64,000 bases of DNA from Patescibacteria group bacterium (GCA_038062115.1 JBBTXS010000004.1:69009-133008), one strand, 5' to 3'. Counted from the first letter of the stretch, positions 34,962 through 57,022 are shown. Numbers and translations: made by a program. Notes: generated by a model from the letters alone, not told the origin.

Positions 34962-34983
34962 CATTTATGTTATTATTTTTGCT

Positions 34984-35259: not shown

Positions 35260-35327
35260 CCATCGACGCTTTTTAGTCACGAATAAAGATACTTCTTTTC
35301 TATTAGTAACATATCGGAAGAGAAAAA

Positions 35328-35336
35328 TGCTATAAT
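35328..35336 (+). promoter_or_regulatory. extended -10 element TGcTATAAT
   Basis: TG at 35328-35329 and TATAAT at 35331-35336, 19 nt upstream of GTG 35356. Confidence 0.3.
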
Positions 35337-35355
35337 TCCTACACTGCCTATTGAC

Positions 35356-35991: not shown

Positions 35992-36058
35992 GATTATCAA
36001 ATTAATTTTTTGGGGAATATTAGCTAGCTGGGGTTGTGCTTAAAACTACTTTATCTCG

Positions 36059-36611: not shown

Positions 36612-36660
36612 ACTTTCATTTTACTAAAAAGAAAAAAATAAAGCAATACACTTCGACTCT

Positions 36661-36799
36661 GACATTACCCCACTTTGTAGCTGTCATTGCGAGGAGACCC
36701 GCAAAGCGGGGCGACGTGGCAATCCCATTGTGAAAAAAGAGATTGCTTCGCTTCGCTCGCAATGACATGAGTAATTTGAAGCAAAACTGGGGTAGTGTC
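36661..36799. repeat. nested palindromic element: outer inverted repeat GACATTACCCCA / TGGGGTAGTGTC enclosing a GTCATTGCGAGG...CTCGCAATGAC unit (36683-36766)
   Basis: Read directly. The inner arms also contain the CCCGCaaaGCGGG hairpin. The track ORFs 36616..36861 and 36665..36973 are translations of this repeat. Confidence 0.8.
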
Positions 36800-36813
36800 A
36801 GCCCAGAAGGGTA

Positions 36814-36842
36814 TTGACATGGGGTTGTATTTATAATATAAG
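36814..36842 (+). promoter_or_regulatory. sigma70-type promoter for fbp, probably leaderless
   Basis: TTGACA (36814-36819), 17-nt spacer, TATAAG (36837-36842). The ATG at 36849 is 6 nt downstream with no SD. Confidence 0.45.
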
Positions 36843-36848
36843 TTGTAC

Positions 36849-37997
36849 ATGAAGGTAACACTATCCGTTCTTAAAGCTGATGTTGGTTCTATTGGCGGCC
36901 ACACAAAACCATCAATAAGGATGATAGATGTAGTAAAAAAAGAAGTTAAGGAGGCCATAAGGAAATCCCTCATTATTGATGCATTTGTATCTTATACAGG
37001 CGACGATATAGCCATTTTATGTTCCCATAAACGTGGTGTAAATAGTCCAGATATCCACATGTTTGCTTGGAATGCCTTTCTAAAGGCAACAGAGGTAGCT
37101 CGTAAATATGGTCTATATGCGGCAGGTCAAGACCTTTTGGTAGATGCCCCTTCGGGTAATATTAGGGGCGCAGGTCCTGGAGTAGCTGAGTTAGAATTTG
37201 ATCATAATCCAGTTAAAGGTAGCATAAGGCCAGCAGAGTCTTTCATGGTTTTAGCTTGTGACAAGTGTAGTGCTGGAGCTTTTAATCTACCTCTTTTCTT
37301 AGGCTTTGCTGATCCCATGTATTGCGCTGGGTTAATGTTACCAGCAATGATTCAGGGCTTTAGTTTCCGCGTCATAGATATGAGCGAGACTCAAGGCGAT
37401 AGCATATTAAAGTTAAATTCTCCAGAAGATTATTACAAGATTGCAGTCTTACTTCGCGATAATGAGCGCTTTGGTGTCGAAGCCATATTCTCTCGCAAAT
37501 TTGGAACCCAAGCCGTAGCAGCTTCCGCAACTAGACTTCATAATATAGCTGGAGTGTATACGGGTAAGGATGATCCAGTGACAATAATTAGAAATCAGGG
37601 CATCTTTCCAGCGCCCGAAGAACTTATCTCGCCTTTTTCTAAAGCCCATTATGTGGGTGGCGATGCCCGGGGGTCTCATGTAATGCCTCTTATGCCAATG
37701 CCCATAAATACCCCAGTAACAGGTATGTATTGTTTACCCTTGGTTTCTTGTGTTGGTTTCTCTATGGACAAAATGGGCAAATTTTCTGATTCTTATATTG
37801 ATTTCTTTGATAATCCCTCGTGGGATGAAATACGTCGCAAAGCACAGCAGAAAGCCTACCTAATTAGAGAACAGGGTTGGTCTGGTGCAGCCATGCTTCC
37901 ATATTCAGAACTTGAGTATAGTGGATTTAGAGAGACTATAACAGATCTTGTTAACAGGTTTTCTTTAAAGAGCGCTCGGTCTCACAAGAAAAAATAA
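36849..37997 (+). CDS. fbp: bifunctional fructose-1,6-bisphosphate aldolase/phosphatase (class V FBPase)
   Basis: MKVTLSVLKADVGSIGGHTKPS N-terminus plus length and collinearity with the archaeal/deep-branching bacterial FBP A/P family. The track ORF starts at TTG 36843; ATG 36849 is preferred. Confidence 0.85.
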   Translation: MKVTLSVLKADVGSIGGHTKPSIRMIDVVKKEVKEAIRKSLIIDAFVSYTGDDIAILCSHKRGVNSPDIHMFAWNAFLKATEVARKYGLYAAGQDLLVDAPSGNIRGAGPGVAELEFDHNPVKGSIRPAESFMVLACDKCSAGAFNLPLFLGFADPMYCAGLMLPAMIQGFSFRVIDMSETQGDSILKLNSPEDYYKIAVLLRDNERFGVEAIFSRKFGTQAVAASATRLHNIAGVYTGKDDPVTIIRNQGIFPAPEELISPFSKAHYVGGDARGSHVMPLMPMPINTPVTGMYCLPLVSCVGFSMDKMGKFSDSYIDFFDNPSWDEIRRKAQQKAYLIREQGWSGAAMLPYSELEYSGFRETITDLVNRFSLKSARSHKKK

Positions 37998-38007
37998 AAT
38001 AAAACAT

Positions 38008-38208
38008 GTGATTATTGGTGCTGTTAAAGAGATTAAAGTTGGAGAAAACCGCGTGGGGATTACTCCATATGGCGTAAAAGCGCTTGTTGATGCCAACCAC
38101 ACTCTTCTTGTTGTAAAAGGAGTAAATACTATAAATGGAAAATGTACATATAAGGCTGTCGTTGAAACATTTAAACTTCTTTATACTCCTTTGGAGAAAG
38201 CCTTGTAG
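38008..38208 (+). pseudogene. remnant of an alanine dehydrogenase (or related AlaDH/PNT-family) gene, N-terminal ~40 codons only
   Basis: MIIGAVKEIKVGENRVGITPYGVKALVDANHTLLVVKG matches the AlaDH N-terminus pattern MIIGVPKEIK..E.RV.LTP.GV..L...GH.V.VE. It then diverges and stops at codon 67. Confidence 0.55.
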
Positions 38209-38269
38209 CCCACATGTGGTATCATAATAGAGTAAGTCTGTCACCGATTTATATCGCAGGAAAGATTTT

Positions 38270-39472
38270 ATGTTGATTGGTATTGACGGCAACGAGGCTA
38301 ATGTAGAAAAAAGAGTTGGGGTTGGAGAATACTCCTTTGAACTACTTCGGCAGCTCAAAGAATCTAGAATTCAGAATCTAGAATTCAGAATCTATTTAAA
38401 AAGAAAACCTCAAGATGATTTTCCAAAAGAATCCACAAACTGGCAATATCGAATTATCGGACCGCGCAAACTGTGGACGCAGATAGGATTACCATTTGAT
38501 TTGTATTTCCATAAACCAAAACCCGATGTGTTTTTTACACCCACCCATTATGCTCCACGCTTTTCTCCTATTTCAACTGTAATTTCAGTAATGGATTTAT
38601 CCTACATCCATTTTCCTGAGATGTTTAAACCTTCAGATTTGTATCAGCTTAAGAATTGGACGGGATATTCAGTGAGAAATGCAAAAAAGATCTTAACTAT
38701 CAGCAGAGCCAGTAAAGATGATATAATCAAATTGCATCAAGTGTTAGAAGAGAAGGTGGTAGTTACTTATCCAGGAATAAAAGTCAAAAGTCAAATGTCT
38801 CCGCCAAAGGCGGATCAGCCTCTGGCTGAAAAATCCAAAATGCAAAGTTCAAAAGTGCTTAAAGAAAAATATAAGATTGAAGGGGATTATATTTTGTTTG
38901 TGGGGACGCTGCAGCCGAGGAAGAATATTGTGAGGCTTATTGAAGCATTCTCAAGGATTATACACCCCCGAGGTGTGCGTGCCGTCGCAAACCACCTCGG
39001 GGGTGGCCGAATGGACTCCCCCGAGGTGAACTATTTGGTCATTGTTGGTAAAAAGGGATGGTTATACGGGGAGATATTTGAGGCTCCTAAGAAGTTTGGA
39101 GTAGAAGATAGAGTTAAGTTTTTAGATTTTGTTCCCGATGAAGATCTTCCTCTTTTTTATCAAAATGCTCTTTGCTTTGTTTTGCCAAGTCTATATGAAG
39201 GGTTTGGTTTGCCGGTTTTGGAAGCAATGCAATACGGCTGCCCTGTAATTACAAGTAATGTCAGTAGTCTTCCCGAGGCAGGAGGAGATGCGGCACTTTA
39301 TGTAAATCCGCTGGATGTTGAGGACATTAAAAAAAATTTAGAATTCATAATTCAGAGTTCAGAATTACGTAAAAAGCTTATCGAAAAAGGATATAAACAA
39401 GTTAAAAAGTTTAGTTGGGAGAAAACAGCGAGAGAAACTTTGAGCGTATTGGAGGACGTGGCGAGAACTTGA
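38270..39472 (+). CDS. glycosyltransferase family 4 carrying four in-frame repeat-derived segments
   Basis: [42 protein letters not shown]. Paralog of 47727 and 59477. Confidence 0.85.
38363..38390. repeat. 7-nt array TCTAGAA TTCAGAA x2 (perfect 14-mer x2), in-frame
   Basis: Read directly. Translates as [10 protein letters not shown]. Only this reading frame of the array lacks stops. Confidence 0.85.
38780..38857. repeat. 78-nt composite: AAAGTCA heptamers, twin GC hairpins TCCGCCaaaGGCGGA + TCAGCCtctGGCTGA, then AAAATSC-type heptamers; in-frame (26 codons)
   Basis: Read directly. Translates as [26 protein letters not shown] in the interdomain linker. Confidence 0.8.
38963..39031. repeat. 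GC-rich 69-nt element, copy E1, in-frame (23 codons)
   Basis: CCCCCGAGGTG (38965-38975) and an identical copy (39018-39028) are both perfectly complementary to CACCTCGGGGG (38993-39003). Translates as [23 protein letters not shown]. Confidence 0.8.
39337..39364. repeat. 7-nt array TTTAGAA TTCATAA TTCAGAG TTCAGAA, in-frame
   Basis: Read directly. Translates as [11 protein letters not shown] near the C-terminus of the GT4. Confidence 0.75.
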
Positions 39473-39475
39473 ATT

Positions 39476-40042
39476 ATGAATAATGAATTAGAAATTAAGG
39501 TTAAAAACAGAATCAAGACAATTTTGCTGGAATTTGCAGTTATGAAATTGCATTTTGTTGGTTTTGTGCCTTCACATCATTTCCGTAGATTTTTCTATAG
39601 ATTAGCTGGAATAAAAATTGGTAAAGGATCAACACTCCATACAGGTACAAGATTTTATAATCCATCTAATATAGAAATTGGGCAAGATTCTATTATTGGT
39701 GAGGGAACTGTTTTAGATGGGAGAGATAAACTAATAATTGGCAATCATGTTGATATTGCCTCAGAAGTTATGATTTATAACTCCGAACACGATGTGCAAA
39801 GCGATGATTTTCGTGCAGTTACTGCACCGGTAATAATTGAAGACTATGTTTTTATCGGTCCTCGTGCAATCATTTTGCCAGGGGTTAAAATCGGTAAAGG
39901 AGCAGTAATTGGGGCTGGGGCTGTGGTTACAAAGGCTGTTAAGAGTTTCGCAATTGTTGGAGGTGTGCCTGCACAAAAGATTGGAGAAAGAAAGATTAAA
40001 GATCTTAAGTATAAATTAGGAAGAGCGGCGTGGTTTAGATAA
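39476..40042 (+). CDS. hexapeptide-repeat (LbH) sugar O-acetyltransferase, WcaF/maltose-acetyltransferase-like
   Basis: IGKGSTLHTGTRF..IGQDSIIGEGTVL..IGNHVDIASEV..IEDYVFIGPRAIILPGVKIGKGAVIGAGAVV hexapeptide repeats. Confidence 0.8.
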   Translation: MNNELEIKVKNRIKTILLEFAVMKLHFVGFVPSHHFRRFFYRLAGIKIGKGSTLHTGTRFYNPSNIEIGQDSIIGEGTVLDGRDKLIIGNHVDIASEVMIYNSEHDVQSDDFRAVTAPVIIEDYVFIGPRAIILPGVKIGKGAVIGAGAVVTKAVKSFAIVGGVPAQKIGERKIKDLKYKLGRAAWFR

Positions 40043-40046
40043 GGAT

Positions 40047-40141
40047 GATTGTTGGATTGCTCAATTGTTTCATTGTTACCTCACCCTAACCCTCTCCTAG
40101 AAGGAGAGGGAACAATTTAGCAATTTAACAATGTAGCAATT
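40047..40141. repeat. intergenic composite palindrome: 8-nt-periodic NATTGYTN arm, GC hairpin CCCTCTCCTagaAGGAGAGGG (40090-40110), inverted ARCAATKT arm
   Basis: Read directly. It fills the whole spacer between the acetyltransferase stop and the GT2 start codon. Confidence 0.8.
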
Positions 40142-41035
40142 ATGACATTTCTATCAATAGTTATTCTTTCCTATAACACAAAAGACTTAACGCTTTCTTG
40201 CTTGCAATCGTTGATAGAACAATACAGAAAGGAGTTAAAAAGTGGGACGGTTGAGATTATTGTTGTTGATAATGCGTCAACTGATGGCTCGGTAGAAAGT
40301 ATTAAGTATTATGTATTAAGTAGTAAGTATAAAGACGTTAGATTAAGGGTTATAGAAAATGACGAGAATTTGGGGTTTGCTAAGGGTTGTAATATAGGGG
40401 CAAAAAAATCAAAAGGGAAATATATTCTTTTTCTAAATTCGGATACACAAGTGCTAGACAAGGGTTTTTTGAAAATGATAGGGTTTTTAGATAGTAATCA
40501 AAAAGTTGGAATTTTGGGAGGAAGGCTTTTAAATCCAGACAATTCACCCCAACCATCTGCTGGAAAATTTTACAATCTTTTTAATTTATTTTTAATGCTT
40601 ATAGGTAGCGAAAGATTTGGATTACTCCGTAAAAGTCCCAAAAATATTGAAAGAGTTGATTGGGTAAGCGGAGCATGTTTGATGATAGGGAAAAGCGTAT
40701 TTGATCAACTAAAGGGATTTGATGAAAATTTCTTTATGTATATCGAAGATATGGAACTGTGCTTTAGAGCAAACAAACTTGGTTTTTTAACTTATTTTTA
40801 TCCAGATATCAAGATAATACATAAAGAACTTGGAAGTAGCAATCGGTCTTTTGCTATAATACACATCTATAAAGGGCTTTTGTATTTTTACTCCAAGCAC
40901 AAAGGTTACTTTCAATATATTATTGCCAAAGTAATGCTAGAAGTGAAAGCTAAAGTCGGAATTGTTGTCGGTTTCCTTATTGGCAATTCTTCCTTAAAGA
41001 AAACTTACATTGAGGCAATAAAATTTAAGATATGA
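40142..41035 (+). CDS. glycosyltransferase family 2
   Basis: LSIVILSYNTKDLT, VVDNASTDGS, LGFAKGCN, LFLNSDT, FFMYIEDMELCFR. Confidence 0.85.
   Translation: MTFLSIVILSYNTKDLTLSCLQSLIEQYRKELKSGTVEIIVVDNASTDGSVESIKYYVLSSKYKDVRLRVIENDENLGFAKGCNIGAKKSKGKYILFLNSDTQVLDKGFLKMIGFLDSNQKVGILGGRLLNPDNSPQPSAGKFYNLFNLFLMLIGSERFGLLRKSPKNIERVDWVSGACLMIGKSVFDQLKGFDENFFMYIEDMELCFRANKLGFLTYFYPDIKIIHKELGSSNRSFAIIHIYKGLLYFYSKHKGYFQYIIAKVMLEVKAKVGIVVGFLIGNSSLKKTYIEAIKFKI
40299..40333. repeat. 7-nt array GTATTAA GTATTAT GTATTAA GTAGTAA GTATAAA, in-frame
   Basis: Read directly. Translates as SIKYYVLSSKYK directly after the DNASTDGS motif. Confidence 0.85.
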
Positions 41036-46831: not shown

Positions 46832-47730
46832 ATAAAAAAATTGATGTATCAATTGTTGTAGTTACCTACAACTCGTTTGACACCATAAAAGAATGCATTG
46901 ATTCTATTGAAAAAACCGTTAAAAAAAACTCATTTGAAATTGTTGTTGTTGACAATAATTCATCGGATGGATCCGCAGAGGGTATTAAGTATTATGTATC
47001 AAGTATTAAGTATGAGAACGTTAGAATTATTCCAAATAAAAAAAACATAGGGTTTTCGAAGGCCAACAATCAGGGCGTCAAAATTTCACAAAAAAGCCGT
47101 TATGTTTTGTTTTTGAATCCCGATGCAATCGTTTATGAAAACACTATTGATGGGATGGTGGATTTTATGAACAAAACTCCCAACGCGGGAGCGGCAACGT
47201 GTTTTATAGAGCTTAAAAATGGCAGACTTGACGATTCCTGCCACAGAGGGTTTCCTACACCTTGGAGGTCTTTATGTTATTTTATGGGTTTATCAAAGTT
47301 TTTTCCAAAAAGTAAATTTTTTGCAGGGTATAACATGACCTATCTTGGTCTTAATAAAACTCACGAGATAGATGCTCTGGGAGGGTCTTTTATGCTGATA
47401 AGGCGCGAAATAGGCAAAAGATTGGGTTGGTGGGACGAAGACTTTTTCTTTTATGGAGAAGATATAGACTTTTGTTTTAGAATAAAAGAAATAGGGTATA
47501 AAATATATTTTGTACCCGAATATAAAGCGCTTCATTACAAAGGGGTTTCAAGCGGAATAAAAAAAGTTTCGGAGTCAATAAGCAAAGCAACAAAAGAAAC
47601 AAAACTTTTTGCAACAAAACATAGATTTAACGCGATGCGAATTTTCTACAAGAAACATTATGAAAAAAAGTATCCAAAAATTGTTACGTGGCTTGTTTAT
47701 GGGGCAATTTGGGCTAAAGAACATTTATGA
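46828..47730 (+). CDS. glycosyltransferase family 2
   Basis: VSIVVVTYNSFDT, VVDNNSSDGS, IGFSKANN, LFLNPDA, FFFYGEDIDFCFR. ATG 46828 (ATGA overlap) is preferred over the track start 46816. Confidence 0.85.
   Translation: MNKKIDVSIVVVTYNSFDTIKECIDSIEKTVKKNSFEIVVVDNNSSDGSAEGIKYYVSSIKYENVRIIPNKKNIGFSKANNQGVKISQKSRYVLFLNPDAIVYENTIDGMVDFMNKTPNAGAATCFIELKNGRLDDSCHRGFPTPWRSLCYFMGLSKFFPKSKFFAGYNMTYLGLNKTHEIDALGGSFMLIRREIGKRLGWWDEDFFFYGEDIDFCFRIKEIGYKIYFVPEYKALHYKGVSSGIKKVSESISKATKETKLFATKHRFNAMRIFYKKHYEKKYPKIVTWLVYGAIWAKEHL
46982..47016. repeat. 7-nt array GTATTAA GTATTAT GTATCAA GTATTAA GTATGAG, in-frame
   Basis: Read directly. Translates as GIKYYVSSIKYE. 37 of 42 nt are identical to 40299-40340 by my count. 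Confidence 0.85.
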
Positions 47731-48869
47731 AAATAGGAATTGATGCTAGGCTTTGGAATGAGTCGGGAGTTGGAAAATACACTAGGAATCTTGTTGAACA
47801 GCTTCAGATAATTGATCGCAAGAATGAGTACATGTTGTTTGTTTTAAGTCAAGATAGAAAAAAGATTCTGAATCAAGTTCAGAATGACAATTTTAGCATA
47901 GTAAATGCAGACATAAGGTGGCATACACTGGAAGAGCAGATGAAGTTTTCATCGATAATTAATAAAGAAGATTTGGATTTAATGCACTTTACTTATCCTT
48001 CGGTTCCTATTTTTTACAATAAGCCTTTTATTGTTACAATTCATGATTTAATTTTGCATCATTTTCCGACAGGAGAAGCCTCAACTTTGGCTTTGCCTTT
48101 ATATTATTTAAAGCACTTCGCATACAAATTAGTGATTTTGCAAGCAGCAAAAAAGGCAAAAAGAATTATTGCAGTATCAAAGGCTACAAAAAAGGAGATT
48201 ATTGACCATCTTAGAGTACCAGAAAAAAAAGTAGTGGTAATATATGAAGGGGTAAGTAACGAGATTACAAATCCAAAATCTCAAATTCCAAATAAATCCC
48301 AAAATCCTAAATACAAAATACTTAATACTAAATACTTTTTGTACGTTGGGAATGCATATCCGCACAAGAACCTAGAGCGAATGCTTATGGCATTCGCAAG
48401 TATTAAGTATAGAGTATTAAGTATAAAGTTGGTTTTTGTTGGCAGAGAGGATTATTTTTACAAAAGATTAAAAGAAAAGGTAAAAAATATGGGTTTAGGA
48501 AAATCAGTGAATTTTTTAGGAGAAGTTAGCGATGATGAATTGATCTGTCTTTATAGAGATGCGAGAGCATTAGTTATTCCATCCTTGATGGAAGGGTTTG
48601 GGCTTCCAGCGTTGGAAGCCATGGCAAATAAATGTTTAGTTTTAGCATCAGATATTCCTTCGTTGAAAGAGGTCTGCGGAAATGCGGCAATTTATTTTGA
48701 TCCTTATGGTATTGATGATATATCAAAAAAAATGATAGAGGTTTACTCTAATGACATAAATCATTATAGTAGCAATATCAACAAAGGTTTTGAAAAAACA
48801 AAAATATTTTCTTGGGAGAAAATGACAAGAGAAACTCTAAAGGTATACGAAAGCTGCGTTGGCGGCTGA
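47727..48869 (+). CDS. glycosyltransferase family 4 carrying at least three in-frame repeat-derived segments
   Basis: MKIGIDARLWNESGVGKYT, LYVGNAYPHKN, PSLMEGFGLPALEAMANKCLVLASDIPSLKE. Confidence 0.85.
   Translation: MKIGIDARLWNESGVGKYTRNLVEQLQIIDRKNEYMLFVLSQDRKKILNQVQNDNFSIVNADIRWHTLEEQMKFSSIINKEDLDLMHFTYPSVPIFYNKPFIVTIHDLILHHFPTGEASTLALPLYYLKHFAYKLVILQAAKKAKRIIAVSKATKKEIIDHLRVPEKKVVVIYEGVSNEITNPKSQIPNKSQNPKYKILNTKYFLYVGNAYPHKNLERMLMAFASIKYRVLSIKLVFVGREDYFYKRLKEKVKNMGLGKSVNFLGEVSDDELICLYRDARALVIPSLMEGFGLPALEAMANKCLVLASDIPSLKEVCGNAAIYFDPYGIDDISKKMIEVYSNDINHYSSNINKGFEKTKIFSWEKMTRETLKVYESCVGG
47875..47902. repeat. half-unit of the GTCATT/ATGACAATT palindromic family (hairpin ATTCTGAA-tcaag-TTCAGAAT + GACAATT end), in-frame
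   Basis: Read directly. Translates as ILNQVQNDNF. Confidence 0.7.
48267..48334. repeat. composite repeat: AAATCY heptamers + AAATAAATCCCAAAATCC + four reverse-orientation GTATTAA-family units (TAAATAC AAAATAC TTAATAC TAAATAC); in-frame
   Basis: Read directly. Translates as NPKSQIPNKSQNPKYKILNTKY in the interdomain linker. Confidence 0.8.
48400..48427. repeat. 7-nt array GTATTAA GTATAGA GTATTAA GTATAAA, in-frame
   Basis: Read directly. Translates as SIKYRVLSIK, at the same alignment position as the GC-rich element E1 in the 38270 paralog. Confidence 0.85.
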
Positions 48870-48874
48870 GCCGT

Positions 48875-48955
48875 ACCGCAGGTGTAATCGTATCTACACC
48901 TCGGATGGTGGCAGCCCTGAGCGAAGTCGAAGGGCATGACTCCTCCGAGGTGGAC
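48875..48955. repeat. GC-rich element, copy E2 (intergenic, chimeric)
   Basis: CCGCAGGTGTA..TACACCTCGG hairpin, then GGTGG, then AGCCCTGAGCGAAGTCGAAGGGC, then GACTCCTCCGAGGTGGAC. Starts 6 nt after the GT4 stop. Confidence 0.7.
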
Positions 48956-49183
48956 ATCAGATTGGGAATGCTATTGTGGTTTGGTAGTCGTACTTGGATT
49001 TAGTGTTTAGCGGACCGTATTTATATGTTTCAAAGACCAAGCCTCTAAGTTTTATCTTCTGGCTTTCTATATACGAAAACAGCTTTTGGTAAATGAGAAT
49101 TAAATATTTATATGGACCATTATAGTTAAATGCTAAGACTTTGGTTTTGGGGTAAGGTTTGAAATAAAAATCATTATGTTGGT

Positions 49184-49254
49184 ATTCACCTTGGAGGAGC
49201 CGAGGTCGTTGCCTCGTCACCTCCGAGGTGTTGCGGAGCGATTCTTCGAAGGTG
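49184..49254. repeat. GC-rich element, copy E3 (reverse orientation, about 71 nt, degenerate)
   Basis: The reverse complement aligns with 63288-63356 over its whole length (shared ...GAGGCARCGACCTCG.CTCCT.C.AGG.GAA). Confidence 0.7.
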
Positions 49255-49274
49255 GAGCTTAGTATAAAGGTTAT

Positions 49275-49383
49275 GGCTGGGTCATAAATACCCATTTGTC
49301 ATTCCGAGCGAGCGTGAGCGAGTCGAGGAATCTCGTTGAAGGAGATTTCTCGGCAAGCTCGAAATGACAATTGTGACCCAGTC
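49275..49383. mobile_element. MITE-like nested palindromic element flanked by an 11-bp direct repeat
   Basis: Outer inverted repeat GGCTGGGTCA / TGACCCAGTC. Inner GTCATTCCGAG...CTCGAAATGAC (49298-49368). ATAAAGGTTAT occurs at 49264-49274 and again at 49384-49394. Confidence 0.5.
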
Positions 49384-49598
49384 ATAAAGGTTATCTCAAG
49401 AGGCGTATTTTGGGATTATAGGCGTTGTTGAGATAAAAAGTTATCTCAGAGGGTTTACATTTTAGCTTTAATCTTTTTGCTTCTTGCCAAAGAGTTTTTA
49501 TATACTCAGTAATCTTTGCATATTCCCCGTGTCCTACTTTCATACAAAATAGATTGAATGGGCCAAAGTTTTTGGTTTGAAATATGTTCTTTATGCTC

Positions 49599-49636
49599 GT
49601 CATTCTGGCAAGCGAAGAATGAGCGCGTCCAGAATC
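49599..49636. repeat. half-unit of the GTCATT palindromic family (GTCATTCTGG..CCAGAATC)
   Basis: Read directly. Overlaps the putative start of the GyrI-like pseudogene. Confidence 0.55.
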
Positions 49637-49660
49637 TATATCGTTTTGGAAGAAAAATGA

Positions 49661-49885
49661 CTTAATATTTTTCAGGAACCTATAGTCGATAGAATTCAAA
49701 GAGATAACGCAATTTTTTCTATCGTATCTGTAGGTAGTCTAGATATTATTGATCCTAAAAAAGACGAAAACGGTAGATATTTCTGTGGTTACAATCAAGA
49801 AGAGTATCGTGGGCTTTTGAATAAATTAAAAGCGGATTTGCTTTTGACCATGTTTCTTCGCGGCGGCGCACCGATTGTGAAGTAG
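49661..49885 (+). pseudogene. orphan open frame without a start codon (3' remnant of an unidentified gene)
   Basis: 74 sense codons ending ...DENGRYFCGYNQEEYRGLLNKLKADLLLTMFLRGGAPIVK then TAG. There is no ATG/GTG/TTG until close to the end. Confidence 0.2.
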
Positions 49886-49889
49886 CTGT

Positions 49890-50300
49890 CTACATTTCCA
49901 ATATTGTAGTTTTGTCTTTCATGACTAAAGTTAGTAGCTCTAAACATTGCAGCCTTCCTAGTAATGCTGGAATATCATTCCTATTTAAAAATCCCACAGG
50001 AATTCTATTTTCAAAGCTTCCTATTTTCGTGCGGACACCTTTCTTGTATAGATAAATTGCCTCTTTCCCACCGACGCCATAAGTATTTTCTAAAAAACAT
50101 TCTTTTTCTAATTCGATTCCCAAAAGTTCAGCATACCTTTTTGGGAAAAGCGAATAGTCTGCTCCGGTATCAACAACCATTTCAACTGGAATCCATTCGT
50201 CAATCTGATCAGAAGTTATAAGAATTTGTAGATATGGACGGTAAATTTTACCCAAAATACCCTTCCCTCGAAAGCTAAAACGAGAAGATATTATTTTCAT
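49890..50300 (-). CDS. retropepsin-like (clan AA) aspartic protease
   Basis: VEMVVDTGADYSLFP (D-T-G active site) and a C-terminal ALLGRL motif. Single-domain size of 136 aa. Confidence 0.7.
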   Translation of the reverse strand: MKIISSRFSFRGKGILGKIYRPYLQILITSDQIDEWIPVEMVVDTGADYSLFPKRYAELLGIELEKECFLENTYGVGGKEAIYLYKKGVRTKIGSFENRIPVGFLNRNDIPALLGRLQCLELLTLVMKDKTTILEM

Positions 50301-50536
50301 TTAAAGATAAGAATGTAAGAAGTTCCAGGATGTGGGACAAATACTAGAACTGGCGACTTGCCATATTTTTCTTTTAATCTCTTGAATCTTTCAAGTGCCC
50401 TTTTGCCACGTGCTAAAGGAACAACTTCCTTATCTACTACAAATACCTGTTTTCCACCATACTTTTTAACCAGAGGATGTAAACCAGAAAGCAGTGCGTT
50501 TAATGTTTTTCCTGTTTTATCCTCTATTTTTTTCAT
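50297..50536 (-). CDS. small DUF5678-like protein, translationally coupled to the aspartic protease
   Basis: MKKIEDKTG...YGGKQVFVVDKEVVPLARGKRALERFKRLKEKYGKSPVLVFVP. ATGA overlap with the protease gene. The longer track ORF (to 50704) overlaps the divergent GT4 start region and was trimmed to Met57. Confidence 0.5.
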   Translation of the reverse strand: MKKIEDKTGKTLNALLSGLHPLVKKYGGKQVFVVDKEVVPLARGKRALERFKRLKEKYGKSPVLVFVPHPGTSYILIFK

Positions 50537-50632
50537 AACAACTTTATTGTAAACAAAATATTCAAAGATTGCAAGCGGTTGTGGGTTCGACGGGCTGCTT
50601 CTTATCATGATAAAATAGGCGGAGTATTTACA

Positions 50633-51778
50633 ATGAAAATTGCATTGGTGTATGATCGGGTAAATAAGTGGGGAGGGGCAGAGAGAGTGCTTTTGGCATT
50701 GCATGAATTATTTCCAGATGCACCTATTTACACTTCGGTTTACAATCCAATAACTGCATCTTGGGCTAAAACTTTCGATGTTAGAAGTTCATTCTTGCAG
50801 AAATTTCCTTTGGCATCTATAGCTCATGAGTTATATGCGGTCTTGATGCCCATTGCCTTTGAAAGTTTTTCTTTTGACCAATATGATCTTGTAATTTCAG
50901 TTACGAGTGAGGCTGCAAAAGGGATAATAACCAAACCAAAAACAAAGCATATTTGCTATTGTCTAACTCCAACCCGTTATCTTTGGAGTGCTTACGATGA
51001 TTACTTTAGAAATCCCTTATTGCGATTTCTATCAAAACCAGTAGTTTCGTATCTTAGGACTTGGGATAAAATTGCAGCGCAAAGGCCAGATGCGTACGTT
51101 GCAATTTCTCAAGAGGTCAAAAGAAGAATTAAAAAATATTATGGGAGAGAGTCAGTGGTTGTATACCCGCCAGTAGACATCAGTAGTATGTATCATGTAT
51201 CAAGTATTAAGTATAAAAAAAATGCAAATGAAATACATAATACAAACTACATACTACATAATACTGTCGATTACTTCCTCATCGTCTCTCGGCTTGTTCC
51301 ATACAAACGAATTGATATTGCGATTAGAGCATTTAATAAGCTTAGACTTCCATTAAAAATTATTGGCGTAGGGTCACAAGAAAAGTATCTTAAAAGCATC
51401 AGTAGCCCAACTATAGAATTCCTTGGCAACTTGACTGAAGATGAGTTAGTAAGCTATTATAAGGGATGTCGTGCTTTAATTTTTGTAGGTGTTGAAGATT
51501 TTGGTCTTACTGTTTTGGAGGCACAGAGTTTTGGAAAACCCGTGATTGCGTTTCGCGGAGGCGGTACACTGGAGACTATAAAAGAAGGAAAAACTGGTGA
51601 GTTTTTTAGTCAACAAAATCCAAAATCACTTACAGATGTGCTTAAAAGATTCGATGAAAGAAAATATAAAAGTACTGACTGCATAGAGAATGCTAAAAAG
51701 TTTTCGTTTGAAAGATTTAAAGAAAAGCTTATGGATGTCGTTGCGAGGAGTTTAGCGACGAAGCAATCTCAAATTTGA
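50633..51778 (+). CDS. glycosyltransferase family 4
   Basis: MKIALVYDRVNKWGGAERVL, FLIVSRLVPYKR, VGVEDFGLTVLEAQSFGKPVIA. Start trimmed from 50579 to ATG 50633. The last 14 codons and the stop lie inside a palindromic repeat. Confidence 0.85.
   Translation: MKIALVYDRVNKWGGAERVLLALHELFPDAPIYTSVYNPITASWAKTFDVRSSFLQKFPLASIAHELYAVLMPIAFESFSFDQYDLVISVTSEAAKGIITKPKTKHICYCLTPTRYLWSAYDDYFRNPLLRFLSKPVVSYLRTWDKIAAQRPDAYVAISQEVKRRIKKYYGRESVVVYPPVDISSMYHVSSIKYKKNANEIHNTNYILHNTVDYFLIVSRLVPYKRIDIAIRAFNKLRLPLKIIGVGSQEKYLKSISSPTIEFLGNLTEDELVSYYKGCRALIFVGVEDFGLTVLEAQSFGKPVIAFRGGGTLETIKEGKTGEFFSQQNPKSLTDVLKRFDERKYKSTDCIENAKKFSFERFKEKLMDVVARSLATKQSQI
51183..51265. repeat. composite repeat: five GTATYAA-family units, A-rich spacer, four TACAWAM units; in-frame
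   Basis: Read directly. Translates as SSMYHVSSIKYKKNANEIHNTNYILHNT. Same architecture and orientation as 20416..20483. Confidence 0.85.
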
Positions 51779-51822
51779 TGGGGATTGCTACGCCCTTCGA
51801 CAAGCTCAGGGCTCGCAATGAC
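51737..51822. repeat. GTCGTTGCGAGG...CTCGCAATGAC palindromic element spanning a gene junction
   Basis: Read directly. The left arm encodes VARSLATKQSQI. The TGA stop (51776-51778) lies in the central loop. The right arm ends 10 nt before the manC ATG. Confidence 0.8.
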
Positions 51823-51832
51823 AATTAGACGT

Positions 51833-52915
51833 ATGAAGATTGTAATCTTTGCTGGAGGGGTAGGGACAAGACTTTGGCCGCTGTCTAGGAGAAATAGTCC
51901 GAAGCAGTTTGAAAAAATACTCGGCGATAAATCTACTCTTCAGCTTGCAGTGGATCGTCTTCTTCCAGACTTTGCCTTTTCGGATATTTATATTGCAACA
52001 GGTAAAAGATATAAAGATATTGTAAGAGAGCAGCTTCCAAAAATTCCAGGCGAAAACTTTATCTTTGAGCCAGAAGTTAGAGATGTAGGACCAGCTGTTG
52101 GGATGGCGCTATCAATTATAGGTAAAGGCAATCCTAATTCTCCGATTGCGATAGTGTGGAGTGACCACTTTGTTAAGAAGGAAAGAAGATTTCGGGAAGT
52201 CCTGCATTTTGCACAAAAATTAGTTAGAAAAAACAATAATTCACTTGTTCTTATAGGACAAAGGGCTCGATTTGCCAACCAGAATTTAGGATGGATAGAG
52301 TTTGGCGATGAAACTTCTGATATAAGAGGAACAAAAGTTTTTCAATTTAAAAGATTGCTTTATAGACCAAGTCTTAAACTCGCAGAAGAATTTTTAAAAA
52401 ATGAAAATTATGCTTGGAATCCAGGATATTTTGTCACTACTCCTAGCTTTATACTGTCTCAATTTAAAAAATTTACACCTAACTTATGGAAAGGACTTAT
52501 GAAAATACAAAAATCTGTAGGGAGAAAGGAACTAAATAGAGTTATAGGAAGCGTATACCCCACATTAGAAAAGATAAGTTTTGATAATGCAATTTTGGAA
52601 AAAATAGACCCAAAACATGTGTTTGTTATAGCAGCAAATCTTGGGTGGAGCGATGTTGGAGCATGGGAGGCGTTAAAGGAAGCTCTTCAGGTATCTTCAA
52701 CAGAAAATATCACAAAAGGAAAAGTTCTTATAAACGACTCAGTTGACAATCTAGTTTTTAACTACACTGATCAGATGGTAGTTGGGATAGATTTAGGGAA
52801 AATGATTGTTATAAATACAGACGATGTTTTATTAGTTTGTCCTAAGACTTCTGCTCCAAAGATAAAAAAATTAGTCGAGAGTCTAGCTGGAACCCCAAAT
52901 GAGCATCTTACGTAG
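51833..52915 (+). CDS. manC: mannose-1-phosphate guanylyltransferase
   Basis: MKIVIFAGGVGTRLWPLSRRNSPKQF, EPEVRDVGPAV, GWSDVGAWEAL. Start trimmed from TTG 51785, which lies inside the repeat. Confidence 0.8.
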   Translation: MKIVIFAGGVGTRLWPLSRRNSPKQFEKILGDKSTLQLAVDRLLPDFAFSDIYIATGKRYKDIVREQLPKIPGENFIFEPEVRDVGPAVGMALSIIGKGNPNSPIAIVWSDHFVKKERRFREVLHFAQKLVRKNNNSLVLIGQRARFANQNLGWIEFGDETSDIRGTKVFQFKRLLYRPSLKLAEEFLKNENYAWNPGYFVTTPSFILSQFKKFTPNLWKGLMKIQKSVGRKELNRVIGSVYPTLEKISFDNAILEKIDPKHVFVIAANLGWSDVGAWEALKEALQVSSTENITKGKVLINDSVDNLVFNYTDQMVVGIDLGKMIVINTDDVLLVCPKTSAPKIKKLVESLAGTPNEHLT

Positions 52916-52918
52916 CCT

Positions 52919-53584
52919 ATGCAATATGCTAGAGTTAGAAAAAGTGAACTATATGAAGTTACAGAAAGGTTAATAGATATTGTTTTCTCTATTGCTTTAA
53001 CTATATTCTTCTTGCCAGTTATCGTAATTATAGCCATAGTAATAAAACTCGATTCAAAAGGACCCATTTTAGCAGATACACCACAACGAGTTGGAAAGAA
53101 AGGTAAGCTTTTTAAGATGTATAAATTTCGTTCTATGGTTGAGAATGCGCACGAAATGCTTCGCGAAGATCCAGAATATTCTAAATTATACGATGTTTAT
53201 AAAAAGGGCAGCTATAAATTAAAAAACGATCCTAGAATAACAAGAGTAGGACGATTTATAAGAAAGCATTCCTTAGACGAAATCCCCCAGTTTCTGAATA
53301 TTTTAAGAGGAGAAATGAGTGTGGTTGGACCAAGAGCTTACTATCCAGACGAGTTGCGACAACAGCAAAAAAAATATCCGCAAACTTTGGAATCTGTGAA
53401 AACTGTGCTTTCGGTTAAGCCGGGTTTAACAGGATATTGGCAAGTTAGCGGTAGAAGTGAAATAAACTTTGATAAGCGCATAGAAATGGACGCTCAATAC
53501 GTGGAAAAAAGTAATATATTGTATGATCTTTGGATTATAGCCAAAACTCCTTGGGCCATGATTGCTGGCAAGGGAGCGTTGTAG
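52919..53584 (+). CDS. small monotopic phosphoglycosyl transferase (bacterial sugar transferase, PglC/WecP-like initiating enzyme)
   Basis: KRLIDIVFSIALTIFFLPV, KFRSM, LDEIPQFLNILRGEMSVVGPR, KPGLTGYWQVSGRS. Confidence 0.85.
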   Translation: MQYARVRKSELYEVTERLIDIVFSIALTIFFLPVIVIIAIVIKLDSKGPILADTPQRVGKKGKLFKMYKFRSMVENAHEMLREDPEYSKLYDVYKKGSYKLKNDPRITRVGRFIRKHSLDEIPQFLNILRGEMSVVGPRAYYPDELRQQQKKYPQTLESVKTVLSVKPGLTGYWQVSGRSEINFDKRIEMDAQYVEKSNILYDLWIIAKTPWAMIAGKGAL

Positions 53585-55518
53585 TGATAAAAGCGTCTCG
53601 AATCTTAAAAGACATTGACCTTTTTGATGCTGGAATAGTTTTGTTGGTTATTGCCTTTCTAGCTCTTACTATTTTGGGAGAACTAAGCGATAACATACGA
53701 ACATATAGCGTTCTCCTTGCCGCTGTAAGCTTTTGCTCGTTAACTTTAATAATTGTAAAACACCGAGCACTTGTATTCCCCCCAATTCCTTCTATATGTT
53801 TACTCCTATTTATTGGCTGGATGTTGGCTGGTAGTTTTTTTTCGAGCTACATCGGAGAAACTATTTGGGAGATTCTAAGAATTGCTTCTTATTTTGCACT
53901 TTTTCTTACAATTTACAATTTGATAAGAAAAAATAAATTAACACAGTCTTTTCTTCTTACATGCTTCGTAATTAGTGGGAGCATTTTACTTGTGAAAGAT
54001 CTTTACAATTTCTTTTCCTGGGGCGGATTATCCAACGGTAGTTATTTAGTTGGATCTTTTTATTGGCATAATCAAATGGCCGGTTTCATAGTTGTCTTAA
54101 TTCCTCTTCTTCTAAGTTTCTTTTTAGCAAGTCGAAATCTGTATTTTAAGTTTGTTTTACTTTCAATAATTTTTCTTTCACTCGTTGCAATAGTTTTTAC
54201 ATATTCTCGGGGTGGATGGATAAGTTTAGTCGCTTCCTTAATGCTTTTTTCTGTGATCTCCTTTAAAAAAATAAAATCTCATATAAAGCCGCTTTTTATA
54301 ATATTTGGGATCTTTACGATTGCTACATTTATAGTTCTTAAACCAGCAAACGTTGGTAAGAAAGCACAAAGTATAAGAACTGAACTATCCAATCAAACAA
54401 GAAGTGTAAGTGGAAATTTGCGAACAACAGTTTGGCAAAATACTTTTAAGATGGTCAAAGATAATCCAATTTTTGGGGTAGGGCCCGGGGCTTTTGGTGC
54501 AGCTTACAATAGATATCAAACTGTGCCGTGGTTGTACGCAAAGCATGTACACAACCATTATTTAGAGTTGGCTGCAGAACTTGGAATAATTGGATTCTTT
54601 CTATTTGCCGTAATTATCTTGAGTGCGCTTTTTGGAGTTTTGGCAGAAATAAAAGGATTTGGCGATGAGACAAGATACCCTTTGCTTTTGGGAGTAATTG
54701 CAGCTCTGTTTGGTTCGGCTTTACATGCGTTTATTGATATTGATTGGTCGCGAATCTCGCTTTATTCAATATTTTGGATATTGTTGGCTATTCTTTTTGC
54801 AAACTTAACAAAAAAAGAAAAAACGATTGATGTAATTGGAATAAAAAAACTTATATATTTATTTCCATTTGTCTTACTAGTTATATCAGCCATGCTATTG
54901 ATAAGCAACAGGAATTATGATATGGCGCAAAAAAATTTAGGCGATAATAATATATCTAAAGCAGAAAAAAATATAGTAAAAGCAATTACCCTAAACCCCT
55001 ACGACTCGACTTTGTATCTTCTTTATGGGCAAATAAAAGAAATTCAAAAAAAGCAAAATGATGCAAAAGCAATGTACTATAAGGCAGCTTCTCTTGCTTC
55101 TTATAATAGCGAACCTTATTATAGATTGGGAAATATAGAATTTGTAAATAAAAACCACAAACAGGCAAAAAAATTGTTCCTAAAAGCAATTGCGCTTGCG
55201 CCCTTTATCCACCCAAAACTGTATATTGCACTTTCTGATACCTATAATGAACTTGGAGAATTTAAAGAGTCGGAAAGGATTATTAGAAATGCTATAGAAA
55301 ATAAATTTTCCCTAAACGAATCGTTTCGCGGTTTTTCGTATATATACGGATACACTGGATTCAACAAGCATCTAGCCAATCTCTATCTAAGGCTTATAGC
55401 TATAGATATCAAAAATAAGAAAACAAAGGAAGCAAAAAGATTGTTAAACGTTGTTGCAAAAGATCTTGATCCCAAAAACCCCATGATCCCTATTTTTAAG
55501 ACTCTTGTGGTACAATAG
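53584..55518 (+). CDS. O-antigen ligase/polymerase-like (Wzy_C) membrane protein with C-terminal TPR repeats
   Basis: YSRGGWISL, HVHNHYLELAAELGIIGFFLF (Wzy_C signature region). The C-terminal ~200 aa are TPR-like (AEKNIVKAITLNPYDS, YYKAASLASYNSEPYYRLGN). GTG 53584 is preferred over the track start 53530. Confidence 0.7.
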   Translation: MIKASRILKDIDLFDAGIVLLVIAFLALTILGELSDNIRTYSVLLAAVSFCSLTLIIVKHRALVFPPIPSICLLLFIGWMLAGSFFSSYIGETIWEILRIASYFALFLTIYNLIRKNKLTQSFLLTCFVISGSILLVKDLYNFFSWGGLSNGSYLVGSFYWHNQMAGFIVVLIPLLLSFFLASRNLYFKFVLLSIIFLSLVAIVFTYSRGGWISLVASLMLFSVISFKKIKSHIKPLFIIFGIFTIATFIVLKPANVGKKAQSIRTELSNQTRSVSGNLRTTVWQNTFKMVKDNPIFGVGPGAFGAAYNRYQTVPWLYAKHVHNHYLELAAELGIIGFFLFAVIILSALFGVLAEIKGFGDETRYPLLLGVIAALFGSALHAFIDIDWSRISLYSIFWILLAILFANLTKKEKTIDVIGIKKLIYLFPFVLLVISAMLLISNRNYDMAQKNLGDNNISKAEKNIVKAITLNPYDSTLYLLYGQIKEIQKKQNDAKAMYYKAASLASYNSEPYYRLGNIEFVNKNHKQAKKLFLKAIALAPFIHPKLYIALSDTYNELGEFKESERIIRNAIENKFSLNESFRGFSYIYGYTGFNKHLANLYLRLIAIDIKNKKTKEAKRLLNVVAKDLDPKNPMIPIFKTLVVQ

Positions 55519-55528
55519 GTTCTTGGTT

Positions 55529-56296
55529 ATGACAGCAAGGAAGGCAATTTATCTAAAAGACTTAACGGTTGCATTTGTAGTTAAAGAGTTAAAATCAAAA
55601 TACAAATCAGCAACACTTGGCTTCCTTTGGATTCTGATAAATCCGCTTCTGCAGATGATAGTTCTAACTATTGTGTTTTCTATTTTTTTAAAAGTACCTG
55701 TCAAAAATTATCCTCTTTTTGTCTTCTCAGGACTGCTGCCATGGATGTTTTTTTCCCTAAGTCTTCAAAATGGAACATCTTCTCTTATTGCCAATAGAGA
55801 CTTGATTAAAAAGGTTAACTTTCCTCGCGAACTTTTACCCATCTCGTCAGTTCTTGCCCATCTTTCTACTTTTATCTTGGCAATGGTGCTATTGGCATTA
55901 TTTGTTGCGATAGTTTTTGGAGTAACGTTTAGTTTTTTTCTTCTTATTCCTATTGTTGTTTTAATGACGCTTCTTGCTATTGGCATTACTCTTTTGTTAT
56001 CAAGTTTTGATATTTATTATAGAGATGTGTCTTTTATTCTTCAGTCGGCACTTTTAGTTTGGTTTTACATCACTCCAATTCTCTACCCAACCGCACTTGT
56101 TCCAGAAAGTTTTTTGTTTTTATATAATCTAAATCCAATGGTTGGTATAATAACTGCATTTCAGGCAATTTTTTTAAATACAAATATGCCTGCGTGGAAC
56201 GTATTAACTATTTCGGTTTTTGAGACTAGCATATTATTGCTCGTAGGTTTTTTTGTATTTGCAAAACGTTCAAAATATTTTGCGGATTGGGTGTAA
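55529..56296 (+). CDS. wzm: ABC-2 type polysaccharide exporter permease
   Basis: KELKSKYKSATLGFLWILINPLLQM is the typical Wzm/TagG N-terminus, followed by 6 TM helices. ATG 55529 is preferred over TTG 55505. Confidence 0.8.
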   Translation: MTARKAIYLKDLTVAFVVKELKSKYKSATLGFLWILINPLLQMIVLTIVFSIFLKVPVKNYPLFVFSGLLPWMFFSLSLQNGTSSLIANRDLIKKVNFPRELLPISSVLAHLSTFILAMVLLALFVAIVFGVTFSFFLLIPIVVLMTLLAIGITLLLSSFDIYYRDVSFILQSALLVWFYITPILYPTALVPESFLFLYNLNPMVGIITAFQAIFLNTNMPAWNVLTISVFETSILLLVGFFVFAKRSKYFADWV

Positions 56297-56299
56297 AAG

Positions 56300-56746
56300 A
56301 TGAAGAAAAGAATTGTCTATCAAATTGATCAATCAGGGAAAATTGAACAGACGAGTCTAAATACAATAATTGCTCTAGTGAATAATATACGGTATGCGGT
56401 CGTCCTACCTAAACAAGTGAAACGCCTTCTTCAAAAGATCTTCCGTAACCAACAAAGACCAAGAATGTTCATTTACGATACTTTTGCCGCCTTAATTGTC
56501 TTAGTGTTTATAAAAACCAAACCAGTAGGTAAAGTTGTGATTGATAAAGAGTATGGAAATGAAGATCTAGTTAAAGCAAGAATTCTAGAGTTTATCAAGA
56601 TGCATAAAATACATTATAATCCTGATATTGAATTTGCCTTAGTTGGGAAATCATCCCAAGCACATATACATGCAGCGAAAATAGCTAATAAGAAAATCCC
56701 ACCCAACCTAGTTCTTGCTTTAGAAGATATTAGCGCTCTTTTATGA
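56300..56746 (+). CDS. hypothetical protein intercalated between wzm and wzt
   Basis: 148 aa, starts 3 nt after the wzm stop. IDQSGKIEQT near the N-terminus and one central hydrophobic segment. No family recognised. Confidence 0.45.
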   Translation: MKKRIVYQIDQSGKIEQTSLNTIIALVNNIRYAVVLPKQVKRLLQKIFRNQQRPRMFIYDTFAALIVLVFIKTKPVGKVVIDKEYGNEDLVKARILEFIKMHKIHYNPDIEFALVGKSSQAHIHAAKIANKKIPPNLVLALEDISALL

Positions 56747-56893
56747 CCAATAAAAAAGACCGGGTATTCTGCTATTAACAGAACCGAGGGCAACTTAACT
56801 CAGGACTGGTTACCTGGAGGTCGGAAGCCATCCCAGCCTTCTATATTTAGAACATATCACGAAAGAACTAAAAAGTCAATAAGATAGGTAAAA

Positions 56894-57011
56894 ATGTAAC
56901 ATTTTACAACCCTTGACATAAACTGTCATTCTGAACTTAGTTCAGAATCTCATTAGATGCTAAAATGAATTCAGCATGACAATTTGCGTCAGTAACGGTG
57001 AAATGTTACGT
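56894..57011. repeat. nested palindromic element: outer ~31-nt imperfect inverted repeat enclosing GTCATTCTGAACttaGTTCAGAATCTC + GATGCT..AGCATGAC (56925-56980)
   Basis: Read directly. Ends 11 nt before the wzt ATG. The track ORF 56989..57228 (-) is an artefact. Confidence 0.75.
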
Positions 57012-57022
57012 AAAAATTTGCT

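Follow-up and report, generated by a model that had tools for sequence, protein, structure and literature searches.

What is the nature of a family of short palindromic elements dispersed in a bacterial gene cluster, and do the inverted repeats that enclose some of these elements belong to the element itself or to the place where it lies? This question is raised by a stretch of 64,000 nucleotides, hereafter the window, from a Patescibacteria group bacterium (GCA_038062115.1, JBBTXS010000004.1:69009-133008), in which a preliminary description made from the sequence had recorded full and half units of an element with GTCATT-type termini, three of the full units being centred within larger inverted repeats. 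The window, with 34% G+C, corresponds for nearly all of its length to a cell-surface glycan gene cluster comprising glycosyltransferases (11 of the GT1 type and 5 of the GT2 type) together with epimerases, methyltransferases and an ABC exporter, and identical stretches occur on contigs of the Hainich groundwater metagenomes, including a 375-kb contig and the metagenome-assembled genome (MAG) GCA_964361775.1. The genes present and the base composition are in keeping with an organism of the candidate phyla radiation/Patescibacteria type. An organization in two layers appears fairly probable: a core made of a pair of hairpins of the type associated with the Ssn nucleases and, around some of the cores, an outer shell resembling a MITE (a miniature transposable element with inverted repeats).

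The termini attributed to the core are indeed conserved, since GTCRTTSYGA has 7 exact matches in the window against 0.37 expected, and none of the shuffled sequences reaches 7. An arm detector consisting of GTC plus a 5-mer, followed by the reverse complement of the 5-mer plus C, recovers 9 arms in the window, against 1.15 in the dinucleotide shuffles used as background; the left arm of core C (GTCGTT) escapes it solely by a single stem mismatch. A full unit consists of two inverted arms separated by a short loop, each arm being a hairpin of its own of the form GTC-[ATTxy … y'x'AAT]-C. The four full units, designated A to D from left to right, lie where they had been placed at the outset, and the half unit formerly put at 47875-47902 corresponds in fact to an arm at 47864-47888 on the minus strand. 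The presence of AATT after ATGAC in 4 of 5 cases holds for B, C, D and the first half unit, and not for A. When folded as long hairpins, the nested units have z-scores of -7.1, -7.5 and -3.7.

The internal arms had been described as coming in several alternative flavours. These flavours result instead from compensatory changes in the stem of the hairpin inside each arm, and core D even combines two different stems, ATTCT/AGAAT in the left arm and ATGCT/AGCAT in the right arm. Among the matches listed for a GTDB scan in which the termini only were fixed (123 elements), GCAATC comes after GTCATTGC in 25 of 43 cases, GGAATC after CC in 18 of 27 and AGAATC after CT in 32 of 48, the off-diagonal pairings being close to zero; in the right arms of these elements, the cognate partner occurs in 54% and a non-cognate one in 1%. 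Since GTC and C remain fixed while the stems covary, the conserved entity is the arm hairpin with its single-stranded GTC and C flanks, and not the sequence of the stem. Conservation of the flank ends about 4 nt beyond GTC, with nothing conserved further out; position -1 is C or T in 97%, and the AATT flank characterizes one subfamily. AATT was also considered as a target duplication and dropped, because the left flank is merely T-rich and no direct repeat accompanies the bare cores, whatever the offset. Integron attC sites and CRISPR repeats were similarly set aside by an informal judgement of the anatomy (no arrays, irregular spacing, wrong core motifs).

A comparable frame is known from Neisseria. 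The Neisseria Transformation Sequence (NTS), CGTCATTCCCGCGMAVGCGGGAATCYRG, contains the dRS3 repeat and is bound by SsnA, a 94-aa single-domain GIY-YIG nuclease which cuts single-stranded DNA only, on one strand only and just upstream of GTC, the 3 nt upstream of the palindrome governing cleavage and the C after the palindrome governing binding (Chenal 2025, PMC11893778). SsnA modulates DNA uptake in Neisseria, such motifs flank the ssn genes of different phyla, and Rickettsia is found among the genomes rich in these motifs, the so-called SRM (PMC11893778).

The arms of the window type are associated with the same kind of gene. Using a profile seeded from an Ssn-like protein adjoining arms in one locus (L115), the best 80 metagenomic ssn loci were collected. 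An arm occurs within 300 bp of the ssn gene in 71 of the 80 loci and arms occur on both sides in 57, the arm density reaching 4.7/kb near ssn versus 0.39/kb further off, a 12-fold difference. The arms are oriented with their GTC outward (upstream of ssn, 74 plus versus 30 minus; downstream, 79 minus versus 37 plus), and their flavours (ATTGC 121, ATCCT 23, ATTCC 21, ATTCT 15, ATGCT 3) cover most of those of the window. GCGAG-type arms stand on both sides of ssn in L115 and L186, and two of the 80 loci are Hainich contigs; on one of the two, with 35% G+C, ssn lies between AATTGTCATTGCGAG… and …CTCGCAATGACA arms, beside a small membrane protein. In this aquifer, ssn is carried by contigs L278 and L286. 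Strict NTS-like motifs, e.g., TGTCATTCCCCGACTCGATCGGGGAATCCAG, also stand beside this protein family in 11 cases, and their presence ties the family to the published SsnA system.

The closest relatives of the Hainich Ssn occur on short contigs or in unrelated contexts; the closest one on a longer contig (L333 553-4435) has as neighbours another GIY-YIG gene and a diversity-generating retroelement (bAvd plus reverse transcriptase). Most ssn homologs reside on contigs of 0.5-3 kb, and many of the called proteins start with an arm-derived peptide, e.g., LVIARRYDEAI (P0008); the arms seem to break assemblies and to mislead start-codon calls.

With respect to their membership of the SRM group, the window arms possess the (Y)GTC in 5' and the C directly 3' of the palindrome which give the motif its orientation, and the association with small single-domain GIY-YIG genes is found in other genomes. 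Like NTS and SRM, they show the frame Y-GTC-AT…hairpin…AT-C with conserved 5' GTC and 3' C, are multi-copy and mostly intergenic, and belong to a type of arm that brackets ssn genes. They differ from them by stems of the ATTGC, ATTCC, ATTCT, ATGCT and ATTTC types with GAG/GAA-type interiors, by their arrangement mainly in tight inverted doublets, by a host resembling the candidate phyla radiation (CPR), a group unmentioned in the main text of PMC11893778, by the absence of an ssn gene from the region read, and by composites with terminal inverted repeats and target duplications, which are not described in that work. The core is best filed as an Ssn-related hairpin repeat variant occurring in doublets of the REPIN type (REP doublets forming hairpins, REP standing for repetitive extragenic palindromic).

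The word doublet calls for a comparison with REPINs proper and with their REP-associated tyrosine transposases (RAYTs). As in the REPIN-RAYT system (PMC3116915; bioRxiv 10.1101/2021.07.10.451892), imperfect palindromes form inverted doublets that fold into one long hairpin, the singlets resemble decayed remnants, target duplications are lacking, and the geometry is that of the two ends of a small gene cassette. The doublets could thus be REPINs moved in trans by a HUH/Y1 transposase encoded elsewhere, the flanking of ssn genes being parallel or secondary; they match the REPIN definition by their inverted doublets and singlets, their hairpin folds and their absence of target duplications, and a Neisseria repeat with the same frame, ATTCCCGCGCAGGCGGGAATC, was treated by Bertels and Rainey as a REPIN with a Group 2 RAYT. 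The gene found in association is nevertheless a GIY-YIG nuclease and not a HUH/Y1 transposase: no RAYT was found, no Y1/HUH-like open reading frame (ORF) was detected by a crude motif screen in about 330 loci or among the main ORFs of the window, and the 12-fold enrichment and ordered orientation of the arms concern ssn. Classical REPs carry a GTAG-type tetranucleotide 5' beside the hairpin. The conserved 5' element consists here of GTC followed by AT, and not of a GTAG-type tetranucleotide. A RAYT-based origin is accordingly regarded as improbable. The preliminary description was right in noting the absence of a mobilising gene from the window (the window and its 14 kb of surroundings contain neither a RAYT/IS200 nor a DDE transposase gene), but the RAYT or IS200-IS605-like mobiliser which it named among the candidates gives way to the Ssn GIY-YIG nuclease as the partner supported by the data. 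The ORFs beside paired copies in three IMG/VR contigs include no candidate mobilising gene.

The second layer, the outer inverted repeats, exceeds chance around three of the four full units: the best flank-to-flank scores, compared with window controls, are 12 for A (P ~0.001), 11 for B (P ~0.002), 9 for D (P ~0.015) and 7 for C (not significant). These repeats had been called locus-specific, which is wrong at least for A, whose outer repeats are shared with a copy E located 28 kb from A on the same contig, beyond the end of the window (L126 12600-12750, which on the numbering of the window would be 65271-65421). Over 153 nt, both outer arms and both spacers included, E agrees with positions 36659-36803 of the window at 92% identity; it is delimited by CTGAC…GTCAG together with a perfect direct repeat of 9 bp, GCTGATTGG. 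Directly outside the outer repeats lie exact duplications, of 11 bp in B, 8 bp in D and 9 bp in E, those of B and D having gone unrecorded in the preliminary description; duplications of 8, 9 and 11 bp occur in 0.003, 0.0008 and 0.0002 of the control trials, respectively. The composites thus delimited measure 109-151 nt, and each family has its own ends: CTGACACTACCCCAG for A/E, GGCTGGGTCA for B and GTAACATTTTAC for D. Terminal inverted repeats around three of the four full units, with target duplications at B, D and E, point to MITE-like composites that moved whole, and the preferred reading makes the outer repeats the ends of such composites, rather than local target hairpins or a portion of the conserved core.

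Among bacterial MITEs, Correia, RUP and Nezha are examples of those which a DDE transposase mobilises in trans. The composites resemble them by their length, their terminal inverted repeats, their target duplications of 8-11 bp and, at least for A/E, their multiple copies, and differ from them in that the part conserved across phyla is the centre and not the ends. We know of no parent insertion sequence for these composites; the CTGAC end and the 9-bp duplication of A/E presumably recall the ends of the IS4 family, e.g., IS50, a resemblance which serves as a lead only. The peptide encoded across E matches only itself and a further copy, F.

Copy F, located on another Hainich contig between two transketolase subunit genes, exhibits the same core devoid of any outer arms. 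One of its arms is identical to an E arm, its loop is nearly identical, and its homology to A and E ends at TGTCATT…AATGACA, the boundary which the three-way alignment with E and F assigns to core A. The arms behave as modules, A and E sharing one 42-nt arm exactly and E and F the other, the differences consisting of small hairpins inserted within the arms. Since F and unit C are both bare, core and shell are separable. The suggestion that the elements are longer than their conserved core consequently applies to the nested units (the A/E identity, the duplications in B, D and E) and fails for F and C; similarly, the proposal that the outer repeats are simply part of one longer family is borne out insofar as A and E share them, and contradicted by the bare cores.

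The same observations decide against another explanation, in which each composite, core included, would have arisen from a DDE insertion sequence by internal deletion, the core being an inherited inner stretch devoid of any separate biology. The terminal repeats and target duplications of B, D and E are what such ordinary MITEs should display, and A and E do behave as one family. Conservation of the core extends to more than 12 phyla, that of the ends does not, and beyond 4 nt from GTC nothing is conserved; bare cores (C, F and about 80-94% of the copies elsewhere) occur without duplications, none of the 129 bare cores from IMG/VR contigs showing a direct repeat at any offset; finally, the stems covary and the arms bracket ssn genes. 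The ordinary-MITE explanation is largely refuted and retains a very slight probability.

Nesting is not restricted to the window. Outer repeats scoring at least 10 surround 6% of the IMG/VR copies versus 0.8% of the controls, and 20% of 91 AATT-type copies from other phyla, among the matches listed, versus 1% of the controls. Cores are found in at least 10 unrelated terminal-repeat families from different phyla: in a Bacteroidetes MAG, two copies share ACTGAAGTTACGCAA ends and differ in their 7-bp duplications, one Nostoc copy has a 9-bp duplication, and a 123-bp cyanobacterial family with AGACCTCTTGCA ends shows 3-bp ANT duplications in five genomes. Such family-specific ends and duplications indicate that one kind of core is carried by different transposition systems. 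Around arm-ssn-arm units, the enrichment in outer repeats is only weak (3.8% versus 1.1%), and the ssn cassettes are therefore not generally located within such shells. A one-armed pattern match in a Microcoleus MAG (L166 2991-3038) lies within a tandem run of the ATTAGTC heptamer, which itself forms the outer inverted repeat.

How cores and shells came together is a distinct question, to which the preliminary description offered a possible answer in its second alternative, namely that the elements land preferentially in pre-existing hairpins. According to this idea, cores would insert between inverted repeats, in the loops of hairpins or MITEs in single-stranded DNA, and the resulting composites would then spread by means of the transposase of the MITE. 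It bears solely on how the nesting arose and does not conflict with the two-layer organization. The recurrence of the same core kind in at least 10 unrelated families, at 20% versus 1% in controls, speaks for it, as do the variable lengths of the duplications among families (3, 5, 7, 8, 9 and 11 bp), the off-centre position of the core with its unequal spacers, the occurrence of related cores with (A, E) and without (F) outer arms, and the location of some cores inside or beside other family copies. Against it stands the lack of any empty shell: scans of viral contigs for the ends of the cyanobacterial family, separated by a short gap (empty shell) or a long one (filled shell), returned 0 empty and 1 filled, numbers too small to decide. 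No further A/E, B or D ends occur among all the loci collected, and about 80-94% of the cores have no outer repeat. What stands of the landing idea is the separability of core and shell and the diversity of the families, and what is missing is the empty shell; landing of this kind is a real possibility, of less than even likelihood.

A bolder version may be formulated, in which the cores would represent a distinct class of hairpin mobile DNA partnered with the GIY-YIG Ssn, instead of a tyrosine or DDE transposase, and inserted, under the direction of structure, into hairpin loops extruded by single-stranded DNA. If true, it would explain the nesting in at least 10 unrelated terminal-repeat families of different phyla, the composites spreading afterwards as hitch-hikers on other transposons, and it would imply that the chemistry of transposition and the way in which targets are chosen are both new. 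It is considered unlikely at present.

Another alternative regards the repeats not as mobile DNA at all, but as cis elements selected by the host, i.e., terminators, mRNA stabilisers or regulatory binding sites of the glycan cluster. The sites are intergenic, between co-directional genes or right after stop codons, the hairpins are strong, and the seven sites are confined to 29 kb of the 78 kb made of the window and 14 kb of surrounding sequence (P ~0.011 under a uniform model that leaves intergenic space out of account), a clustering which recalls that of NTS around surface-antigen genes. Rfam yields no family at the units by gathering scores, and none at E<=1 across 36-58 kb, and the units are thus not a known RNA family. 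Near-identical arms at unrelated loci, target duplications, and a distribution over both strands, inside coding sequence and on at least 120 IMG/VR contigs (GCGAG-type doublet, exact termini) agree poorly with a host function, which is held to be quite improbable. The family is present in more than 12 phyla among the matches listed; the AATT-flanked type occurs, among the GTDB matches listed, in Alpha-, Gamma- and Deltaproteobacteria, Flavobacteriia, Bacteroidales, Chloroflexi, Planctomycetes, Nostocales, Clostridia, Ignavibacteria, Elusimicrobia, Rickettsiales, Legionellaceae and Patescibacteria, with chance accounting for about 30 of the 126 listed matches. Full-text searches of the literature with the terminus strings, the encoded peptide LRFARND and the cyanobacterial end sequence returned primers and noise only.

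Several points weigh against the two-layer organization itself. We know of no demonstration in the literature that Ssn moves any DNA. Neither the window nor the adjoining 14 kb was found to hold an ssn homolog, the Hainich ssn contigs are not assignable to the organism of the window, and the Ssn family is here equated with SsnA by Pfam GIY-YIG, protein size and strict NTS-like flanks only; the link of this organism to Ssn is therefore a putative one, by family membership. In a doublet, a single strand carries one arm only in the cleavable orientation. With respect to the shells, composite A lacks a target duplication, the 78 kb contain a single copy each of B and D, no transposase whose ends match was encountered, and the three outer-repeat sequences differ, so that one transposase would be insufficient for all three. 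Finally, the published SRM pattern, HGTCWYN(0-2)YYVSBRHN(0-5)WNVSBRGN(0-2)RNCYNB, has no match in the window. This pattern is the search tool of its authors and not a biochemical definition; it matches at only 13 of the 80 ssn loci, the NTS control being matched, and the window arms are thus a variant missed by the published tool. No presence/absence polymorphism was observed, the 3 contigs with the A locus and the 7 with the D locus being all identical.

Taken as a mechanism, the two-layer organization would operate as follows. The geometry of the doublet corresponds to that of an arm-ssn-arm cassette minus the gene, and the doublet may be a non-autonomous derivative, standing to the cassette as a REPIN to its RAYT or a MITE to its insertion sequence, and spreading without target duplications. 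In the cell, by analogy with the biochemistry established in Neisseria, it might offer Ssn a strand-specific site in single-stranded DNA, be it in uptake, replication or recombination. The composites A, B and D would have been moved as wholes by DDE-type transposases encoded elsewhere.

It was not until 2025 that the enzyme acting as partner of this repeat frame was reported, in the case of the Neisseria-type motif, and the commonest flavour at the sampled ssn loci, ATTGC, is missed by the published pattern, which makes the censuses based on this pattern probably too low. The repeats occur in a CPR-like groundwater genome and on many IMG/VR contigs, and CPR bacteria depend on DNA uptake, the process modulated by SsnA in Neisseria. 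Owing to the correspondence of the doublet with a gene-less ssn cassette, the idea of a mobile element linked to a GIY-YIG nuclease becomes testable, and the transport of cores inside miniature transposons bears on the annotation of repeats and on the assembly breaks around ssn.

Coordinates of cores, single arms, composites and flanking duplications in the window (TIR, terminal inverted repeat)
Feature	Position	Strand	Remarks
Composite A, 143 nt (TIRs, spacers and core)	36659..36801	.	153 nt shared with copy E at 92% identity; folds as a single long hairpin, z -7.1; no target duplication at this copy
Composite A, left TIR CTGACATTACCCCACTTT	36659..36676	+	pairs with 36784-36801, score 12, P ~0.001; conserved in E
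Composite A, right TIR CTGACACTACCCCAGTTT (minus-strand reading)	36784..36801	-	conserved in E; identical to the left end of E
Core A	36683..36766	.	arms 36683-36724 (+) and 36741-36766 (-), loop CCATTGTGAAAAAAGA
Single arm GTCATTCTGAACTTGATTCAGAATC (half unit 1)	47864..47888	-	93% identity over 27 nt to the left arm of D
Composite B, left 11-bp direct repeat ATAAAGGTTAT	49264..49274	+	exact, abuts the outer repeat; k>=11 in 0.0002 of controls
Composite B, 109 nt	49275..49383	.	outer repeats GGCTGGGTCA / TGACCCAGTC; core 49298-49368
Core B, arms	49298-49332; 49344-49368	+; -	
Composite B, right 11-bp direct repeat ATAAAGGTTAT	49384..49394	+	
Single arm GTCATTCTGG…CCAGAATC (half unit 2)	49599..49636	+	fold alone weak, z -0.9
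Core C, bare (no outer repeat, no duplication)	51737..51822	.	arms 51737-51768 (+) and 51783-51822 (-)
Composite D, left 8-bp direct repeat GTAAAAAT	56888..56895	+	exact, abutting; k>=8 in 0.003 of controls
Composite D, 114 nt	56896..57009	.	outer repeats GTAACATTTTAC / GTGAAATGTTAC; core 56925-56980
Core D, arms	56925-56949; 56956-56980	+; -	
Composite D, right 8-bp direct repeat GTAAAAAT	57010..57017	+	

Some of these elements extend into genes. Half unit 1 is located in the 5' part of the glycosyltransferase ORF 47727-48869, where it is read in frame as KKILNQVQND. The glycosyltransferase ORF 50579-51778 enters the left arm of unit C and terminates there (…VVARSLATKQSQI*), and the called ATG of the next gene falls inside the AATGACAATT end of the unit; unit C provides the C-terminus of the former and a possible false start for the latter. 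In this respect, the elements recall the Rickettsia palindromic elements (RPE), which Ogata et al. are said to have described in 2000 as palindromic repeats able to sit in frame within genes. The likeness to RPE, drawn from their description and not from their sequence, lies in the arm inside one glycosyltransferase ORF and in the C-terminus of another encoded by unit C; unlike RPE, most copies here are intergenic. Composite D is identical across 7 contigs from different samples.

Other features accompany the elements along the window. Directly to the left of composite A (34614-36611), two small toxin-antitoxin-like pairs occur, Gp49 plus HTH at 34614-35259 and DUF433 plus DUF5615/PIN-like at 36059-36611. 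The region 48870-50710 around unit B and half unit 2 looks degraded, with a GyrI-like fragment, a retropepsin-like aspartyl protease ORF and a weak DUF5678 match, and it contains a second local repeat, AAAGGTTATCTCAAGAGG / AAAAGTTATCTCAGAGGG, overlapping the right duplication of B. Just upstream of composite D, a G+C-rich stretch at 56765-56850, GACCGGGTATTCTGC…GGTCGGAAGCCATCCCAGCC, lies in an AT-rich spacer; 7 contigs share this stretch without any change, and Rfam yields no match for it.

A second repeat family consists of the tandem heptamer AGTATTA/AGTATNA, often organized in inverted pairs, with 46 matches against 14.8 expected. Its runs (19847-19923, 20415-20440, 40298-40330, 46981-47013, 48304-48424 and 51182-51265) are located inside coding regions, i.e., several glycosyltransferases and a 691-aa ORF, and encode peptides of the KYKILNTKY / SIKYRVLSIK type. 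A DUF3800-V RNA is recognized by Rfam at 62516-62612 on the minus strand (49.3 bits, gathering score 37.4), directly downstream of the DUF3800 gene at 61814-62482. Finally, the G+C content reaches 0.38-0.42 at 36843-39500, over the gene of a class V fructose-1,6-bisphosphatase and the next glycosyltransferase, versus 0.33 elsewhere.

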